Assembly (NCBI GenBank): GCA_963703575.1
Contig: CAVPEU010000026.1
Span: 129,850-193,849, forward strand
DNA length: 64,000 nucleotides
Direction: 5' to 3'
Source of the DNA: an uncultured Chloroflexia bacterium
GTDB lineage: Bacteria > Chloroflexota > Limnocylindria > Limnocylindrales > CSP1-4
Of this stretch, positions 15,513 to 48,513 are shown in pieces. Numbering within the stretch: position 1 is the first letter of the stretch; each line of letters starts with the position of its first letter. Below the pieces are notes generated by a model. That model was not told the origin of the DNA. It did not search any database and worked only from the letters and a program-made list of their open reading frames with translations. The translations under genes were made by a program, and so were the position numbers.

Positions 15513-15703
15513 CGCTCAGGAGTTCTCCGCTGGGATCACGGTCGGGCACGGCGAGCCGGCGTCCGCGGGCCTCGGCGTGCGTGGAGGGGTTCGGGACATC
15601 GGACCGATCGTACTACGGGACGTCGCGGCCGATGGCCGGGAGGACCCGGGTCCTCCCGGCCGAAGCCGGAGGCGCACCTGGGGCGGGACCCCCGGAGATG
15701 CGG

Positions 15704-17702: not shown

Positions 17703-18947
17703 TCAGAGCAGCTCGGCGATCAGGCTGGCGGCGCGACGAGCCCCGTCGACGGCGACCGGGCGGTACGCGACGGGGCGCTCGATCTCCTCGGCCATCGCCG
17801 CCGCGAGGACCTCGGGAGGGCTCGACGCATAGTCCATCGCCCGCCCGGCCCCGTACCGCTCGAGCCGGTGGCGCACGTGGCGGCTCTGCTCGAAGTGGTT
17901 GCGCAACGGAAAGTACAGGAACGGCCGCCGCGCGGCGGCCAGCTCCATCGTCGTCGTGAGGCCGCCCTGGACGACCGCGAGGTCGCACACCGCGAGGTGC
18001 CGGTACAGCCCCGGGACGAAGCCGCGCACCTCCACGCCCGCGGGCGCGTCCAGCGATTGGGGATCGATCCGCGGCCCGGCGACCGCGATCATCCGCAGGC
18101 CCGGGATCCGGCGCCTGGCCTCCGGGTATGCCGCGACGACCCGCCGCAACAGCGCCTCGCCCACGCCGGACCCACCCACGGTCACGAGCACCACCCGCTC
18201 GTCGGGGTGGTATCCGAGCTCCCGCCGCAGCTCCTCCCGCCGCTCGAGGAGCGGGGCCGGGTCGAACCCGGTCACGTAGCCGCTGAAGTCGTAGTGGCGC
18301 TCGGTCCAGTCGCGGATGGGCGGCAGGCCCGGGCCGAACGCGTCGGGGACGATGTCATCGGGATCGCCCACGAAGATCGCCCGGTCCCGGATTCGCGGGA
18401 AGCGCTCCACGTGCTCGATCATCTCGGCGTTGTAGTCGGCCGTGAGGAACGCCTCCCGCTCGCCGCCGGCGGGCATCGGCAGCCACCCGACGAAGTCCGT
18501 CATCCAGGCGAAGGCCGTCCGCTTGAGCTCCGGGTTCTCGTGCAGGTAGTGGTCCACGTCCCACGACTCGTCGCCGATCACGAGGTCGTACTCCCCGCTC
18601 TCGACGGCGTCGTGGAACACCATGAAGTTCGCGACCAGGATCTCGTCCATCCGGCGGATCGCCTGGAACGCGTTGAGATCGTGCTCCGACGACTCGGCCG
18701 CGATGTGGGCCGACTCGCTCGCGAGCTCACCGCTCAGTGGGTGGATGCGCTCGCCACGCGCCTCGAGGACGGCCGTCACCGGGTGCTGCGCCAGCCAGTC
18801 GATGTCGAGGTCCGGCCGCAGGACGCGGAGCTCCTCGGCGATCGCCACGTCCCGCTGCGCGTGACCCAGCCCGATGGGCGACGAGAGGTAGAGGGCCCGG
18901 CGGCGACGCGACAGGGCGCGCGTCCATCGGCCGTGGTGGGCGCTCAT
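17703..18947 (-). CDS. GT-B fold glycosyltransferase (GT1/GT28-like)
   Basis: C-terminal nucleotide-sugar binding region (VVLVTVGGSGVGE...VVQGGLTTTMELAAARRPFLYFP). ATG overlaps the upstream hydrolase TGA (ATGA). Confidence 0.8.
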   Translation of the reverse strand: MSAHHGRWTRALSRRRRALYLSSPIGLGHAQRDVAIAEELRVLRPDLDIDWLAQHPVTAVLEARGERIHPLSGELASESAHIAAESSEHDLNAFQAIRRMDEILVANFMVFHDAVESGEYDLVIGDESWDVDHYLHENPELKRTAFAWMTDFVGWLPMPAGGEREAFLTADYNAEMIEHVERFPRIRDRAIFVGDPDDIVPDAFGPGLPPIRDWTERHYDFSGYVTGFDPAPLLERREELRRELGYHPDERVVLVTVGGSGVGEALLRRVVAAYPEARRRIPGLRMIAVAGPRIDPQSLDAPAGVEVRGFVPGLYRHLAVCDLAVVQGGLTTTMELAAARRPFLYFPLRNHFEQSRHVRHRLERYGAGRAMDYASSPPEVLAAAMAEEIERPVAYRPVAVDGARRAASLIAELL

Positions 18948-19972
18948 CTCGCCCGCCCCGGCAGCGACTCGACGAAGGCGCGGATGGCCAGGTTCGTGCG
19001 CACCGGCTCGCGCGCCTGCACGAGGTGACCCGAGCCCTCGAACGTCATCAGCCGCCCGCCGGTGAGCTCGGCCAGGGCCCGGCCATGGGCGTGGCGGATG
19101 ATGTGGTCGTCCGATCCGTGGATGACGAGGACGGGACAGCGGACCGACCTGGCGAGCTCGACGAGCGCGGCGCGGCCACCGAGGCCCGGGGCGTCCTCCG
19201 TGAGCAGCAGCGTCTCCGCGTCGGTGTCGAGGGCCCAGGCGACGCAGTCCTCGGTCTGCTTGGTGGAATGCGGCTCCGACAGGCACTGGGCGAAGAAGAA
19301 CTCCACGAACCCGCGGTAGTCCTGCCGCCAGTAGTGGCGGTTGTACTTGTCCCAGCCCTCGTACGCCTCGAGCTCGTCGTCGAACATCGAGGCGGACGCG
19401 GCACGGGTCGGGTCCGGCGGCGCCAGCGGCAGCGCCGGACCGAGGAACACGGCACCGTCGACCCGTTCCGGGTGCCGGCCCGCGAGGTCCAGCGCCCAGC
19501 AGGCGCCCATCGAGAGCGACACCAGCACGGCGCTCCGGGTGACGGTCGCGTCCATCACCGCGAGCGCATCGGCGGCGAACTCCTCCACCGCGTACGCGTC
19601 GGCCGTCGCCGGCCGATCGGAGCGCCCGTTGCCACGCCCATCGAAGGTGACCACGCGGTAGGAGCGTGCGAGGTACGCGATCTGCGCCTTCCACACGCGC
19701 GCGTGCACGATCGACCAGGTGGGCAGGAGCACGACCGTCGCCCTGTCGCCGCCACCGGGACCCCGGTCGCCGTACCGGTCCCAGGCGACGCGGACGCCGT
19801 CGCGCTCGACGAACCCGCTCGCGTCGGGCAGGATCGCGGGCGAGCCGTCGGATGGCCGGGCAGGACCCGGCGGGGTGATCGGAGCATGTCTCCCGGTTGG
19901 ACGAGCCGGCCGCCGGGGGACGCGGGCCGGCGCGCTCATCGGTCGGCTCTCGGGCCGGCACCGTCGGCCCAC
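18944..19972 (-). CDS. Alpha/beta hydrolase fold protein
   Basis: Nucleophile elbow VSLSMGACWA; hydrolase fold from VVLLPTW to HGSDDHII. Low-complexity N-terminus; alternative start at 19939. Confidence 0.8.
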   Translation of the reverse strand: MGRRCRPESRPMSAPARVPRRPARPTGRHAPITPPGPARPSDGSPAILPDASGFVERDGVRVAWDRYGDRGPGGGDRATVVLLPTWSIVHARVWKAQIAYLARSYRVVTFDGRGNGRSDRPATADAYAVEEFAADALAVMDATVTRSAVLVSLSMGACWALDLAGRHPERVDGAVFLGPALPLAPPDPTRAASASMFDDELEAYEGWDKYNRHYWRQDYRGFVEFFFAQCLSEPHSTKQTEDCVAWALDTDAETLLLTEDAPGLGGRAALVELARSVRCPVLVIHGSDDHIIRHAHGRALAELTGGRLMTFEGSGHLVQAREPVRTNLAIRAFVESLPGRAR

Positions 19973-20092
19973 GCGGCGCGATCGTCCAGGCCGGCCTCGA
20001 CGGTAGGCCCGGTCGTCCAGGCCCGGGTGATGCTCGTCGTCATCGCTCGCCTCCAGTCTGGATGCCCGGCGCGATCCGGGCCGGCGAACCGG

Positions 20093-20792
20093 TCAGCCGC
20101 CCGCCGGGCCGGCGTCCGCCTCGATCCGGCCGGTCTCGAACGCGCGGATCAGGTCGCCCACCTTGCGCAGCGCTCCACGGACCGGGAACTCCGATTCGTC
20201 GAATCCGAGCAGCAGGATCGGCTCCGCGCCGACGAATGGCAGCGCCATCAGCACCCCGGCCTCCTCGGGCGTGAACGGACCGATGGGCCCGGTCCGGGAC
20301 GCGGTCCGGCGGGCGACGTCGGTCAGCAGCCGGAACCAGGCCCCGACGGGCTCGCGAAGGCTCGCCGCCAGGTCCGGGTCCGACCAGCCCGCCGCGACCA
20401 GCTCCTGGAGGACCCGGACGTAGCCGGAGGCCAGGTCGAGCTCCAGGAAGTCGCACGCCTGCTGCCACTGCATCGACAGCGCCTCGGGCCCGGCGTACAT
20501 CTCCGTCTGGCGCTCGAGCAGCCGCTCGTTCTCGGCGGAAAGGATCCGCAGCACGAGCTGCTGCTTTGACCCGAAGTGATAGTGGATCTGGCTCAGCGGC
20601 ACGCCTGCCGCCTCCGCGACCCGACGGGTCGAGAGCCGCGCATACCCCTCCTCCAGGAGGCACGACCGCGCGGCCGAGAGGATGGCCGCCGGGACGTCCC
20701 GCGGCCGATCCGCCCCGCCATCCCGGGACGGCCCCGGGATGGCGGCTGCGGCGACAACCTGTCGACGTTGGTCTCGCCATGCCCGACTCACC
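20093..20792 (-). CDS. TetR family transcriptional regulator
   Basis: HTH STRRVAEAAGVPLSQIHYHFGSKQQL. GTG start inferred because no ATG is in frame. Confidence 0.75.
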
Positions 20793-20835
20793 CGCGCAGG
20801 ATACCCGTGCCCATCCGCCGCCGGCCCACCCGTGT

Positions 20836-21639
20836 CTAGCTCGCCAGGATCGTGCCGCCCGCGAGCAGCAGCGCTACCCCCAGCGGCCGGCCCAGGCGCC
20901 GTCCGCCGGGCACGTTCTTCTCGATCGCCATCACCACACCCGTCCCCAGCATCCAGGCGAGGTTGCCCATGCCGAGCGCGAACAGCACGAGCATCAGCGA
21001 CCAACAGCAGCCGACGCAGTAGGCCGCATGCCGGACGCCGATCTCGAGCGCCTCCCGTACCGGCCGGACACCGTGCCAGTGGCCCATGACGAACATCAGC
21101 GGTGAGCGGCACGCCTCGAGGCAGCGGTACTTGAGCGACGAGAACTGGTAGGCACCGGACCCCAGCAGCGTCACCGCGACGACCGTGTTGGGGTGGGCGG
21201 CGAGCCACGGGACGGCATCGACCAGTCCGTGCACAGCCGCGTCCAGCAGGAACAGCCCGACCCCCACCCCCGTCCAGACGACGACGTAGGCAGTCACCAC
21301 GAGCCCGGCCAGGACGTCCGGGTGGGGGCGTCGTGCCACGACCGCCCGGAACGTCGCGACCAGCGGCAGGCTGGTGGGCAGCATCATCGCGACCGTCATC
21401 AGCAGCCAGCCGGCCACGAACAGGACGACCGTCAGGCCGGTCAATCCGTCGTCCGCCAGCTCGCGATGGTCCAGGTAGCGGGCCGCGGGCGAGCCGCTCC
21501 AGAGCCACAGGGCCGCCCAGGCAACGGGCACCAGCCCGACGAACGCGAGAAGCAGGAGACGGCCGCCCCGGGGTGCGGGACGCGGCCGGAGCCGCGCCCC
21601 CATCCCCGCGAGCGCCGTGAGACGGGGGGACGCCGTCAT
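20836..21639 (-). CDS. DUF2182-type integral membrane protein (predicted metal-binding)
   Basis: Six or more TM helices and conserved His/Cys (HWHGVR, AAYCVGCCW). Begins 12 nt after the DUF1326 stop. Confidence 0.75.
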   Translation of the reverse strand: MTASPRLTALAGMGARLRPRPAPRGGRLLLLAFVGLVPVAWAALWLWSGSPAARYLDHRELADDGLTGLTVVLFVAGWLLMTVAMMLPTSLPLVATFRAVVARRPHPDVLAGLVVTAYVVVWTGVGVGLFLLDAAVHGLVDAVPWLAAHPNTVVAVTLLGSGAYQFSSLKYRCLEACRSPLMFVMGHWHGVRPVREALEIGVRHAAYCVGCCWSLMLVLFALGMGNLAWMLGTGVVMAIEKNVPGGRRLGRPLGVALLLAGGTILAS

Positions 21640-21651
21640 GTCGACCGCCCC

Positions 21652-22263
21652 TCAGGCCGCGAACCTGAAGCTGCCCTGGACCGCGTTGTGGTCGCGCAGG
21701 CCCTTCACGGAGGGGAGCCCGTGCCGCGAGCCGTCCCGGCTGAAGTGGCTGGCCTTGGACACGTACGCGGGCGATCCCGGGATGGTGCTGAACGCCGTCT
21801 CCTGCATGACCGTCGGCAGACCGGTCATCCCGTGGAGCGGCGCCAGCTCCGCATCGGCCAGGTCGCCGATGCGCAGCGTGCCCTTGCCGCCCTGGACGGT
21901 GAACGTGATCGGCGCCCGCTCGACGGCGACGACCTCGCCGATCAGCCCGGCGATGTCCGCGATCGCGCCGCCCGCCTGGCCCGTGAACACCTTGAGCAGC
22001 GCCGCCTGCTGCCCGTCGCTCGCCCGGTCGTCCACGAACACCGCGGCCTTCCAGGAACCGGGTGTCAGCACGTTGCCGGGAATGTGCACCGACAGGGCGA
22101 GCGTGAGGCCCGACACGTCCATCCCCTCGATCGTGCCCTTGTCGATGCCCCACGCGAGGACCGAGTCGCACTTCCCGCCGTCCGGATCCTCCCCCACCCA
22201 GCACGGGCACACGACCTCGCAGGTGCAGACCTCGAGCAGCCTGCCTTCGATCTCGTAGGACAT
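21652..22263 (-). CDS. DUF1326 family protein
   Basis: N-terminal CTCEVVCPCW Cys cluster. GGAGG RBS 5 nt upstream. Characteristic partner of DUF2182. Confidence 0.75.
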   Translation of the reverse strand: MSYEIEGRLLEVCTCEVVCPCWVGEDPDGGKCDSVLAWGIDKGTIEGMDVSGLTLALSVHIPGNVLTPGSWKAAVFVDDRASDGQQAALLKVFTGQAGGAIADIAGLIGEVVAVERAPITFTVQGGKGTLRIGDLADAELAPLHGMTGLPTVMQETAFSTIPGSPAYVSKASHFSRDGSRHGLPSVKGLRDHNAVQGSFRFAA

Positions 22264-22320
22264 GGGACGCCTCCGCTGTTCCGCGCGGCTCGGTCGGGAC
22301 GCCGGGTGCTCGCGCTGTGT

Positions 22321-22349
22321 CTGGTTGGTCGGTCGACCGACCGACCAGG
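22321..22349. promoter_or_regulatory. Candidate operator: a 16-bp perfect palindrome GGTCGGTCGACCGACC flanked by inverted CTGGTT and GACCAG
   Basis: Sits 60-85 bp upstream of the DUF1326 start, in the promoter region of the DUF1326-DUF2182-tetR operon. Confidence 0.5.
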
Positions 22350-22384
22350 TGACCGACGCATGATGGCGATCCCGACCGGTGGTG

Positions 22385-23359
22385 TCAAGGGGTCGGATGC
22401 GTTTTTGTCGGATGCGTTTTGCTTGGCCGCCCATCCATCGACCCGGCCCGGCCCTGCCCGGGCAGGCGGGCCTCGGGGCCGGCCGCCGTCTCGCGCGTCT
22501 CGACCAGGCCCTCCGCGGCCAGCGTGGCCAGGGCTTCGCGAACGGCGTGCGGCCCGTGCTCGCCGATCGAGCCGGCGAAGGGAATCCAGGCTCCGTCACC
22601 CGCGTCGCGGGCCCGCGCGATGATCCGGCCGCGGAGCCAGCGCGTGGTCGACGGGAAGGCTGGCTCCGGACGGCGACGCACTGGGGAGGCGGCCACGGCC
22701 CGCTCCCCCGCCGCATACCGGCACCAGGCGATCGCCGGGCAGTCCGCGCACAGGGGCTTCCGCGGCCTGCACAGCCGAGCCCCGATGTCCATCAGCGCAT
22801 GGGTCCAGTCGCCGGCCCGATCCGGCGGCAGCACCGCATCGGCCAGCGCCTGGAGCGCCGCCGGCGGGATCCCCTCCGGCCCTCCAGCGGCCACCCGTCC
22901 GAGCACGCGCCGGACGTTGGTATCGACCGCCCCGACCGGCCGCCCGAACGCGATCGCGGCGACCGCCCGCGCGGTGTACGGGCCAACGCCCGGCAGGGTC
23001 ATCAGCCCCTCGACGGTGTCGGGGACGAGCCCGCCATGGTCGGCCACGATCGCCTTGGCCGCCCGGTGGAGGTGGATCGCGCGCCGGTTGTAGCCGAGGC
23101 CGGCCCAGGCCCGCAGCACATCCGCCGCCGGGGCCACGGCCAGCGCCTCGACCGTCGGGAAGCGGCCCACCCAGGCCGTCCAGGCCTCGGCCGCCCGCTC
23201 GGCCTGCGTCTGCTGGGCCATGACCTCGGAGACCAGCACGGCGTACGGGTCGCGCGTCGCGCGGAAGGCGAGGCGGCGGCCGGTCGCGTCGTACCAGGTC
23301 AGCACCGCGTTGCGCAGCGCGGGTGCGACGGGCTCGGCGGCGACCGGCTGGGCAGGCAC
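22385..23359 (-). CDS. mutY: A/G-specific adenine DNA glycosylase (MutY-like, HhH-GPD with 4Fe-4S)
   Basis: LTWYDATGRRLAFRATRDPYAVLVSEVMAQQTQ; HhH (LPGVGPYTARAV); FeS cysteines (CRPRKPLCADCPAIAWC). Confidence 0.85.
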   Translation of the reverse strand: MPAQPVAAEPVAPALRNAVLTWYDATGRRLAFRATRDPYAVLVSEVMAQQTQAERAAEAWTAWVGRFPTVEALAVAPAADVLRAWAGLGYNRRAIHLHRAAKAIVADHGGLVPDTVEGLMTLPGVGPYTARAVAAIAFGRPVGAVDTNVRRVLGRVAAGGPEGIPPAALQALADAVLPPDRAGDWTHALMDIGARLCRPRKPLCADCPAIAWCRYAAGERAVAASPVRRRPEPAFPSTTRWLRGRIIARARDAGDGAWIPFAGSIGEHGPHAVREALATLAAEGLVETRETAAGPEARLPGQGRAGSMDGRPSKTHPTKTHPTP

Positions 23360-46978: not shown

Positions 46979-48513
46979 GCTACGGCCTCGCCGGAAGCGG
47001 AGGTCCGAAAGGCGATGGGGCCCTCGCCCGCGGGCAGGTCGGCGACGATCCGCCCCGCCTCCAGCCGCACGATCCGGCTCGCGAAGGCGGCGATGAACCG
47101 CTCGTCGTGGGTCGCCGCGAGCACGGCCGCGCCGGCATCCACCCGGGCGCCGAGGATCGCGACCAGGGCCTCGTGGCCGCGCCGGTCCTGCCCGAACGTG
47201 GGCTCGTCGAGGACGATCACCTCCGGGTGGCGGACGAGCGCGGTCGCCAGCGACAGCCGACGTTGCTCGCCGCCCGACAGCGTGTACGGGCTGCGGTCCC
47301 CGAACAGCCCGAGCGGCAGGCCGATTCGGTCCATCAGCGCCTCCGCCTCTCGCCGGCCGGCCGCGTCCAGGCCCAGCATCACCTCGTCGCGGACCCGCAG
47401 CGTGACGAACTGCTGCTCCGGGTCCTGGAACACGTACGCCGCGTGCCGCGCCAGCTCCGCGGGACGCAGGCGCGCCGGGTCGAGCCCCGCGAGGCGCACC
47501 CGGCCACCCGCCGGCCGCAGGAGCCCGACCAGCAGCCGGCCCAGGGTGGACTTGCCGGACCCGTTCGTGCCCACCAGCGCCACGCGCTCGCCGGGGGTCA
47601 GGGCGAGGTCCACGTCCCGCACCGCGACCGGACCGTCCGGGTAGGCGAAGGACAGGCCGTGGGCGGCAACGATGGCGGAGGGGGCCGGCGAGGACGATGC
47701 CGATGATGACGACGACGAAGCCGCCGGCGACGGCGCCTCGTCCGGCAGCCACGCCCCGGCGGTCACCAGCCGGTCCCGCGACCGCGCCAGAAGGTCGGCC
47801 GGGGGACCCACGTCGATCGGGCGGCCGTCCGGCCCCAGCGCCAGCACCACGTCCGCCAGCGGCCACGCGATGTCCACCCGGTGCTCGACCAGCACGATCG
47901 TCACCGACCGCGACGCGCGGAGGTCCGCCAGGCGAGCCGCGAACGCCCGGGCCGCGGGCGGGTCCAGGTTCGCCGTCGGCTCGTCCAGGACCAGGACCCC
48001 GGGCCGCGCCGCCAGGACGCCCGCCAGCGCCAGCCGCTGCTGCTGCCCGCCGGAGAGACGCGCGGATCGCCGCCGCTCGAAGCCCTCGAGGCCGACCCAC
48101 GCAAGCGCCTCGGGCACCCGGCGCCGCATCGCTGCCGCCGGCCACCCCCGGCTCTCGAGGCCGAACGCCACGTCGTCCTCGACCCGCTCCATGACGAGCT
48201 GGCTCTCCGGGTCCTGGAACACGAGCCCGACCCGCGCCGCCAGCTCGGCGCCGCCGGCGCCGACGGTATCGAGCCCGTCGACGGTCAGCCGGCCCCGCCA
48301 CTCCCCGGGGAACTCCCGCGGGACCAGACCCGCGAGGGCGAGCGCGAGCGTGCTCTTGCCGGAGCCGGACGGCCCCACGACGAGCAGGCAGGCCCCGGGC
48401 TCGAGTTCGAACGAGACGTCCGCGAAGGCGGGCGAGGGTCGTCCGGCGAAGCGGAACGTGGCGCCGTCCGCGCGGACGGCGCCCGGCGTCCCGGCCGGCG
48501 GTTCAGTCGTCAG
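46975..48513 (-). CDS. ecfA: Fused duplicated ECF transporter ATPase (EcfA-EcfA', YkoD-like); start codon unresolved
   Basis: Two ABC cassettes (GPSGSGKST...LSGGQQQR...VLDEPT, then GTNGSGKST...LSGGEQRR...VLDEPT). Sequence upstream of the GTG at 48378 is clearly coding (ATFRFAGRPSPAFADVSFELEPGACLLV), but no ATG/GTG/TTG is in frame up to the S-component stop. CTG at 48513 was taken as a provisional start. Confidence 0.7.
   Translation of the reverse strand: MTTEPPAGTPGAVRADGATFRFAGRPSPAFADVSFELEPGACLLVVGPSGSGKSTLALALAGLVPREFPGEWRGRLTVDGLDTVGAGGAELAARVGLVFQDPESQLVMERVEDDVAFGLESRGWPAAAMRRRVPEALAWVGLEGFERRRSARLSGGQQQRLALAGVLAARPGVLVLDEPTANLDPPAARAFAARLADLRASRSVTIVLVEHRVDIAWPLADVVLALGPDGRPIDVGPPADLLARSRDRLVTAGAWLPDEAPSPAASSSSSSASSSPAPSAIVAAHGLSFAYPDGPVAVRDVDLALTPGERVALVGTNGSGKSTLGRLLVGLLRPAGGRVRLAGLDPARLRPAELARHAAYVFQDPEQQFVTLRVRDEVMLGLDAAGRREAEALMDRIGLPLGLFGDRSPYTLSGGEQRRLSLATALVRHPEVIVLDEPTFGQDRRGHEALVAILGARVDAGAAVLAATHDERFIAAFASRIVRLEAGRIVADLPAGEGPIAFRTSASGEAVA

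Follow-up and report, generated by a model that had tools for sequence, protein, structure and literature searches.

Repressors of the TetR family, as exemplified by TetR/tetO and QacR, display an N-terminal helix-turn-helix (PF00440) in an all-helical fold of nine helices, and regulate their own synthesis from palindromic operators that overlap the promoter and the transcription start. Within this family, two dimers of QacR bind to one 28-bp inverted repeat (IR1), and NemR from E. coli senses electrophiles and hypochlorous acid (HOCl) by means of one cysteine. The locus described here lies on the minus strand of a 64-kb stretch of DNA, hereafter the window, from an uncultured Chloroflexia bacterium (contig CAVPEU010000026.1; GC content 73%), and comprises the genes of (i) DUF1326, a soluble protein, (ii) PpoB2, a membrane protein formerly called DUF2182, (iii) a TetR-family repressor, (iv) an α/β-hydrolase, and (v) a GT-B glycosyltransferase. 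The comparison with related loci makes it probable that this conserved cluster is repressed by its own TetR protein through a palindrome located at a sigma-70-type promoter. The fold of the repressor, the position of the palindrome and the predicted autoregulation resemble TetR/tetO and QacR, and the 28-bp length and two overlapping registers of the palindrome recall IR1; unlike in those systems, the repressor gene is the third within the operon and not divergent, and no paper on the operator, TCGGTCG-AT-CGACCGA, was found in the literature searched. As a predicted TetR-autoregulated cluster, the locus is a new member of a familiar class, with an ordinary, textbook type of switch. It would define an operator consensus, a promoter and a cognate repressor in an uncultured GC-rich Chloroflexota lineage with almost no known regulation, placing the DUF1326/PpoB2 pair in a defined regulon.

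A sequence-only reading of the window had considered this gene pair functionally undescribed, which two published systems contradict. PpoB2 from Marinomonas mediterranea, the founder of COG5486/PF09948, hands copper specifically to the tyrosinase PpoB1, encoded in the same operon (PMC2855505). In Roseobacters, the DUF2182/DUF1326 pair was named DmdE/DmdF (EMBO J 2026), with both genes needed for growth on dimethylsulfoniopropionate (DMSP); purified DmdF, the DUF1326 protein, consumes H2O2, with peroxidase activity reported, and the homologues of DmdEF beyond Rhodobacterales stand apart in phylogeny and show no link to DMSP genes (PMC12992908). The window protein shares with PpoB2 the Pfam family, the polytopic membrane architecture and conserved residues of the metal-ligand type, although its partner is DUF1326 and no tyrosinase is found in the cluster or in the window. 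The pair also resembles DmdE/DmdF as two adjacent genes under a dedicated transcriptional repressor, here a predicted one, and by the link to oxidative-stress protection proposed for the Roseobacter proteins from the peroxidase activity of DmdF and the DinB neighbours (PMC12992908). Unlike in that system, the DUF1326 gene comes first, reversing the order, and the regulator is this TetR and not DmdR; the neighbours are TetR, hydrolases, glycosyltransferase and glycosylase, with no dmdA or acuI, so that the locus is no DmdEF operon as identified by dmdA/acuI and dmdR.

Promoter, palindrome and their conservation

The region between positions 19800 and 22600 displays a single sigma-70-like site, TTGACA-17-CATCAT (22388-22360), with 10 of 12 matches and 0.1 sites expected. 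It comprises the -35 hexamer TTGACA (22383-22388, minus strand) and the -10 hexamer CATCAT (22360-22365, minus strand), separated by a 17-nt spacer, and predicts a transcription start near 22353. Beginning 11 nt past the -10 hexamer, the putative TetR operator is a 28-bp near-palindrome (22321-22348, no strand) whose arms, 22321-22334 and 22335-22348, pair at 13 of 14 positions, extending from about +5 to +32 of the predicted transcript and lying 58-85 nt upstream of the ATG of the DUF1326 gene. It encloses a perfect 16-bp palindrome, GGTCGGTCGACCGACC, at 22327-22342. The sequence-only reading had described this perfect palindrome upstream of the first gene, and it is confirmed; the inverted CTGGTT/GACCAG flanks of that reading prove complementary at five of six positions. 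The exact operator motif, TCGGTC-N4-GACCGA, reads TCGGTCGGTCGACCGA in gene orientation (22329-22344, no strand), and a further copy, differing at one position and displaced by 4 bp, occupies 22325-22340 (no strand), the perfect 16-bp dyad being located exactly between the two overlapping registers. The HhH-GPD glycosylase gene upstream (22385-23359) ends in the -35 hexamer, TTGACA holding its TGA stop codon, which embeds the cluster promoter in the end of the preceding gene.

The distant relatives comprise 80 metagenome loci retrieved by an alignment of the TetR proteins, at 53-68% identity, and three more obtained via DUF1326 homologues. In an alignment of the upstream regions, L002-L006 match the window at both promoter hexamers, in the length of the spacer and at the palindrome, whereas the sequence between these elements diverges; the overlapping double register is also present in all five, pointing to a clade-specific variant. 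The succession of -35 hexamer, 17 nt, -10 hexamer and palindrome recurs in the relatives of 77-89% identity and in about 20 more distant metagenome loci, the aligned -10 hexamers reading CACAAT, CATCAT and CACTAT in L002-L006 and TAGAT(T) in the more distant loci. At least one exact TCGGTC-N4-GACCGA occurs within 160 nt upstream of the DUF1326 gene in all 26 DUF1326-PpoB2-TetR loci with upstream sequence, and two exact copies in 20 of them, the pair being spaced by exactly 18 bp in 23 cases. The usual layout comprises cTTGACA, 17 nt, TAGAT, TCGGTC-N4-GACCGA, 2 nt, and the second TCGGTC-N4-GACCGA. Where the TetR gene comes first, an exact copy is located at its own promoter in 17 of 22 loci, as in L074, which displays TTGACA, 17 nt, CATCAT and then TCGGTCGATCGACCGA, and the second copy in this architecture precedes an OsmC-like gene.

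In total, 377 kb of related loci contain 73 exact sites, compared with 0.04 expected from base composition. All but four head the cluster, the TetR gene or the OsmC-like gene, and the four exceptions (L011, L062) are located some 200 nt 5' of the TetR match. On the other hand, the motif is absent from the three DUF1326-PpoB2 loci without this TetR, namely a Chloroflexia genome (L001), a Caballeronia plasmid (L090) and a Ralstonia megaplasmid (L091). The half-sites are invariant and the central bases vary around the consensus given above, a pattern that corresponds to a protein-binding site and not to an RNA stem. The motif tracks the TetR orthologue through two different gene architectures, as a conserved 16-bp dyad positioned at or just after the -10 hexamer. 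Judged from this co-occurrence and from the promoter anatomy, the cis-encoded TetR very probably has its operator in this palindrome, an assignment already made in the sequence-only reading and now strongly supported by comparative genomics.

The weight of the palindrome comes from its conservation among loci and not from the rarity of a 16-bp palindrome. Perfect 16-bp palindromes are common in the window, with 10 found compared with 5.1 in dinucleotide shuffles (maximum 11), and this number is not unusual; 28-bp palindromes paired at 13 of 14 positions number 2 compared with 0.14, which is unusual. The abundance of the shorter kind, together with near matches to the exact 16-mer elsewhere at 3 mismatches and at chance frequency, would agree with a chance feature of GC-rich sequence. 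The probability of such an origin is nevertheless practically nil, being refuted by the fixed position of the motif in every one of the 26 loci and by the excess of exact sites over expectation.

The palindrome might also act as RNA, either as the terminator hairpin of the upstream HhH-GPD gene or as a structured 5' leader. It can form a stem of 5 + 6 bp with a one-nucleotide internal loop on each side and a 4-nt loop, and in the window clade it lies between two co-directional genes. We consider this very improbable: the scan discloses neither a T-run nor a terminator-like site, the fold is no better than that of shuffled sequence (z = -1.12), Rfam shows no match in a scan of 19900-22700 (E ≤ 1), and the palindrome is separated from the upstream stop codon by the promoter. 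In addition, the motif is preserved in clades in which the upstream gene is divergent, and its arms retain their sequence itself, compensatory changes being absent.

A third alternative assigns the palindrome to a different, unlinked regulator, the cis-encoded TetR acting elsewhere. The motif always heads the TetR-hydrolase-glycosyltransferase cluster, and co-occurrence cannot separate TetR from another regulator. This alternative is improbable, TetR being the sole DNA-binding protein found among the conserved cluster genes, the site abutting TetR's own promoter in TetR-first loci, and the invariant recognition helix going with invariant half-sites. Moreover, a 16-bp dyad with half-sites of 6-7 bp displays the usual size and symmetry of TetR-family operators.

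Some observations count against repression by the cis-encoded TetR and have to be set beside the evidence for it. The TetR gene always travels with the hydrolase and glycosyltransferase genes, so that the motif could belong to an unlinked regulator. The window clade presents a single compact double-register site in place of the usual two sites 18 bp apart, located 11-15 nt further from the -10 hexamer, and all functional claims derive from the comparison of loci.

Other repeats were observed in the vicinity of the promoter and elsewhere in the window. Two tandem copies of GTCGGATGCGTTTT, 15 bp apart, occupy 22392-22420, just upstream of the -35 hexamer and within the 3' end of the HhH-GPD gene, and the corresponding stretch in L005 is a triple repeat, CCCTCTTGAC, of unrelated sequence; the spot may be UP-element-like or duplication-prone. 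The other palindrome of comparable size in the window is a perfect 28-bp one, GGCCGGGAGGACCCGGGTCCTCCCGGCC, at 15634-15661, which may serve as a site for a regulator or fold into a hairpin; positions 48460-48483 hold a further perfect palindrome, of 24 bp, GGCGCCGTCCGCGCGGACGGCGCC.

The TetR protein and the predicted switch

The TetR gene (20093-20791, minus strand) encodes 232 residues from a probable GTG start codon. Its PF00440 match (E 1.6e-13) covers residues 40-86 of a 235-residue query (20096-20800), corresponding to about 37-83 counted from the GTG at 20791. The AlphaFold2 model (predicted local distance difference test, pLDDT, 84.7) comprises nine helices preceded by a low-confidence N-terminal extension, also drawn helical (residues 3-16), so that the protein combines the N-terminal helix-turn-helix with the all-helical two-domain fold of the family. 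With this model, Foldseek returned 155 matches in the PDB (E ≤ 0.001); every one of the 50 best listed is a regulator of the TetR family, a generic resemblance, and the QacR-DNA structure (1jt0) and the NemR structure (4yze) are among the fold matches. At the sequence level, no PDB match is close (best E 5.6e-09) and most of them fall on the helix-turn-helix region, the ligand domain being without a close characterised relative. The recognition helix, VPLSQIHYHFGS, is invariant in 87 orthologues, and residues V64-S75 are invariant or nearly so in these and in the 34 orthologues of a second alignment.

Outside the helix-turn-helix, the only conserved Cys or His residue is C113, located in the pocket helix α5 and conserved at 98% in the 87 orthologues, one of which is without the Cys. 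Orthologue conservation discloses no Cys/His cluster and no metal-type site in the protein. As in NemR from E. coli, the regulatory domain of this repressor contains one highly conserved Cys, and the regulon includes detoxification-type genes; on the other hand, the identity is 18% and the shared fold is generic, C113 being a possible counterpart of NemR Cys106.

A public TetR gene call on the source contig (P0131) comprises 169 aa with no Pfam match and starts inside the helix-turn-helix; the conservation of the coding sequence upstream of that start indicates that the call is truncated.

In the proposed mechanism, transcription would begin from TTGACA-17-CATCAT and proceed through the DUF1326, PpoB2/DUF2182 and TetR genes, the transcript probably continuing through those of the α/β-hydrolase and the glycosyltransferase. 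One or two dimers of the cluster's TetR would occupy the 28-bp near-palindrome, with its two overlapping operator copies, and the bound protein would block initiation or promoter escape until an inducer frees it from the operator. The location of the TetR gene inside its own repressed unit would result in autoregulation. Among the products, cytosolic DUF1326, with its five cysteines, would be served by the membrane protein of the copper-chaperone family, with its Cys, His and Met residues. The sequences show the identity of the genes, the layout of promoter and operator, the conservation of both and the joint occurrence of operator and TetR, from which we infer the binding of TetR to the operator, the co-transcription of the genes and the nature of the inducer.

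Gene content and architecture of the cluster

The three tightly spaced minus-strand genes described in the sequence-only reading are confirmed as DUF1326, DUF2182 and TetR by PF07040, PF09948 and PF00440. The DUF1326 gene (21652-22263, minus strand; PF07040, E 2.1e-52) encodes 203 aa starting with MSYEIEGRLLEVCTCEVVCPCW, its ATG at 22263 being preceded at 6 nt by a Shine-Dalgarno sequence, GGAGG (22270-22274, minus strand), as read from the sequence, and GGAGGCGTCCC-ATG is kept at the start of the gene in L002-L006. A gap of 12 nt separates it from the PpoB2 gene (20836-21639, minus strand; 267 aa; PF09948, E 6.6e-59; copper-chaperone family), and 44 nt separate the latter from the TetR gene. 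Downstream, the α/β-hydrolase gene (18944-19972, minus strand; PF00561) has its true start probably downstream of 19972, as suggested by comparison of the N-termini, and the GT-B glycosyltransferase gene (17703-18947, minus strand; 414 aa) displays weak similarity to Glyco_tran_28_C, MGT and MurG. The NCBIfam matches of both proteins, to PcaD and macrolide esterases for the hydrolase and to MGT and MurG for the glycosyltransferase, are far below cut-off.

The glycosyltransferase ATG overlaps the hydrolase stop codon in the window (ATGA), and in the relative L088 the PpoB2 gene runs 4 nt into the TetR gene. Promoter and terminator scans, a motif scan and folding of the gap disclose no internal promoter, operator or terminator within the cluster, the fold of the TetR-hydrolase gap being no better than that of shuffled sequence. 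The gene overlaps and this negative result suggest that the cluster is transcribed as one unit. Against this stands the gap of 120 nt that separates TetR from hydrolase in the window, which makes the co-transcription of the hydrolase and glycosyltransferase genes no more than probable. The same gap contains an open reading frame (ORF) of 35 codons (19936-20043) with a strong GGAGG-6-ATG start, which is not conserved in L005 and is probably due to chance; it was rejected as the true start of the hydrolase because its frame differs and its product shows no homology to the N-termini of the relatives.

Five contigs whose DUF1326 is 77-89% identical to that of the window all display the order HhH-GPD glycosylase, DUF1326, PpoB2, TetR, α/β-hydrolase and glycosyltransferase. 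Searches by tblastn with the window proteins disclose two architectures, comprising (i) DUF1326, PpoB2, TetR, an NTF2-like gene in some loci, one or two hydrolases and the glycosyltransferase, and (ii) TetR in first position, two hydrolases and the glycosyltransferase, often followed by the OsmC-like gene. The gene located 5' of the cluster varies by clade, being either a co-directional glycosylase or a divergent tRNA synthetase. An α/β-hydrolase gene is found 3' of the TetR gene in most loci with enough downstream sequence, and the glycosyltransferase is the most conserved product, at 64-89% identity across loci. According to this comparison of gene content, the invariant core is TetR, one or two α/β-hydrolases and the glycosyltransferase, the DUF1326-PpoB2 pair being a 5' accessory; the three-gene operon proposed in the sequence-only reading thus gives way to a longer unit with a different core.

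In several relatives (L002, L006, L074, P0129), the hydrolase and the glycosyltransferase are fused into a protein of 680-760 aa, which argues that both work on the same substrate. A small NTF2-like gene (PF12893, Lumazine_bd_2), absent from the window, separates the TetR gene from that of the hydrolase in the distant relatives L087-L089 and is fused to the hydrolase in L089. An antibiotic-inactivation pair and an RhlA/RhlB-like glycolipid pair were considered for the hydrolase and the glycosyltransferase and were not adopted, and the PADLOC defence models show no match among the five cluster proteins.

The closest relatives of the cluster derive from metagenome assemblies of Chloroflexota (Limnocylindria-like), many of them from soil. 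A protein search retrieved 6965 DUF1326 homologues; homologues with a named source derive from Candidatus Limnocylindrales and Chloroflexota metagenome-assembled genomes, and the DUF1326/PpoB2 pair as such occurs in Proteobacteria, Actinobacteria, Bacillus, haloarchaea and Chloroflexota.

DUF1326, PpoB2 and the OsmC-like alternative

The DUF1326 protein matches its profile with 178.3 bits (cut-off 25) and PpoB2/DUF2182 with 199.4 bits (cut-off 28.7). DUF1326 contains the motif CTCEVVCPCW, in which C13, C15, C19, P20, C21 and W22, as well as C32 further on, are invariant in Chloroflexota, Caballeronia and Ralstonia homologues, so that five cysteines (C13, C15, C19, C21, C32) are preserved from Chloroflexota to Betaproteobacteria. 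Its AlphaFold2 model (pLDDT 87.5) is mostly β, with the Cys loop as the low-confidence part, and weakly resembles acetoacetate decarboxylase; no relative of solved structure was found by sequence. The invariant residues of PpoB2 comprise H58, an AMMLPT motif, C173-x3-C177, H204 and C208-V-G-C-C-W. Compared with the sequence-only reading, the CTCEVVCPCW and CVGCC motifs stand, whereas HWHG, although present in PpoB2, is not a conserved motif, W188 and G190 alone being invariant.

The second architecture replaces the pair by a different protein. The OsmC-like gene (PF02566) is located 3' of the glycosyltransferase gene in TetR-first loci (L072, L074, L075, L077, L085, L055 and L024), directly 3' of TetR in L024, and is preceded by an exact operator copy in L072, L074, L075 and L085 and by a copy with one mismatch in L077. 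It occurs in none of the nine loci that carry the DUF pair and enough downstream sequence and in all five loci that are clearly without the pair. The DUF pair and the OsmC-like gene hence appear to be alternatives under the same operator, and this interchange suggests the hypothesis of protection against peroxide or thiol stress.

A copper or other metal homeostasis module has to be weighed here, in which PpoB2 would deliver Cu(I) to the Cys-rich DUF1326, either through the membrane or within it, and metal would release the TetR repressor. Such a module would agree with the invariant Met, Cys and His residues of the membrane protein and the five invariant cysteines of its partner. TetR-family proteins can respond to metals, ComR from E. 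coli being one of them, and a second, CssR, responds to heavy metals (PMC8176726). PF09948 now bears the Pfam name 'PpoB2, copper chaperone', after the protein that transfers copper to tyrosinase (PMC2855505), and the Caballeronia grimmiae plasmid L090 carries a tyrosinase-family gene (1209-2708) at a distance of 2.3 kb from its DUF1326-DUF2182 pair, echoing the PpoB2-tyrosinase link. On the other hand, no copper ATPase, CsoR/CopY, multicopper oxidase, tyrosinase or other metal-homeostasis gene was found among the Pfam-annotated gene calls, which exist for nine related loci (the other metagenome loci being screened solely for six cluster proteins), or among the L074 ORFs scanned. The 64-kb window contains no tyrosinase homologue either; the absence of tyrosinase lowers the claim of a tyrosinase chaperone and not that of metal handling. 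In addition, of the Cys and His residues of TetR outside the helix-turn-helix, a single Cys is conserved and no His; the genes that constantly accompany TetR encode hydrolases and a glycosyltransferase, and sister lineages carry the OsmC-like gene in place of the DUF pair. The metal module is thus unlikely as it stands, if well worth keeping in view, and the 'metal-related' label of the sequence-only reading remains a guess.

A role in peroxide or thiol stress agrees with the evidence no less well than this guess. The DUF1326-PpoB2 pair may be an accessory stress-protection pair against peroxide or thiol-reactive stress, a possible role that we put forward with more reserve than conviction. 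Three points, each of them weak, lead to it, namely the swap with the OsmC-like protein, the peroxidase activity of DmdF (PMC12992908), and the single conserved Cys of TetR. Several features tell against a stress role: the OsmC-like protein is below the NCBIfam cut-off and atypical, seems from a reading of its sequence to be without the second catalytic Cys, and the Pfam name of PF09948 points to copper and not to peroxide. Moreover, the example of CssR shows that conserved cysteines of TetR-family proteins may have no redox activity (PMC8176726). The metal and stress roles are not exclusive, as a metal-loaded DUF1326 could itself be a peroxidase.

A bolder and rather doubtful extension considers TetR a sensor of peroxide or electrophile stress, acting via C113 or a stress-derived ligand, whose regulon recruits either the OsmC-like protein or DUF1326 with its PpoB2-type partner. 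If so, DUF1326/DUF2182 would constitute a widespread metal- or cysteine-dependent antioxidant system, functionally interchangeable with OsmC, and PF09948 proteins would be dedicated metallochaperones for DUF1326, and not for tyrosinase alone. The predicted regulon offers an experimental handle on two poorly understood cysteine-rich proteins, the inducer of TetR being expected to point to the function of the pair.

A minor observation concerns the annotation of the DUF1326 gene in public records, where a 263-aa protein of the European Nucleotide Archive (P0001) is 49% identical to the alternative-frame translation of this gene and represents a spurious gene call in a GC-rich gene.

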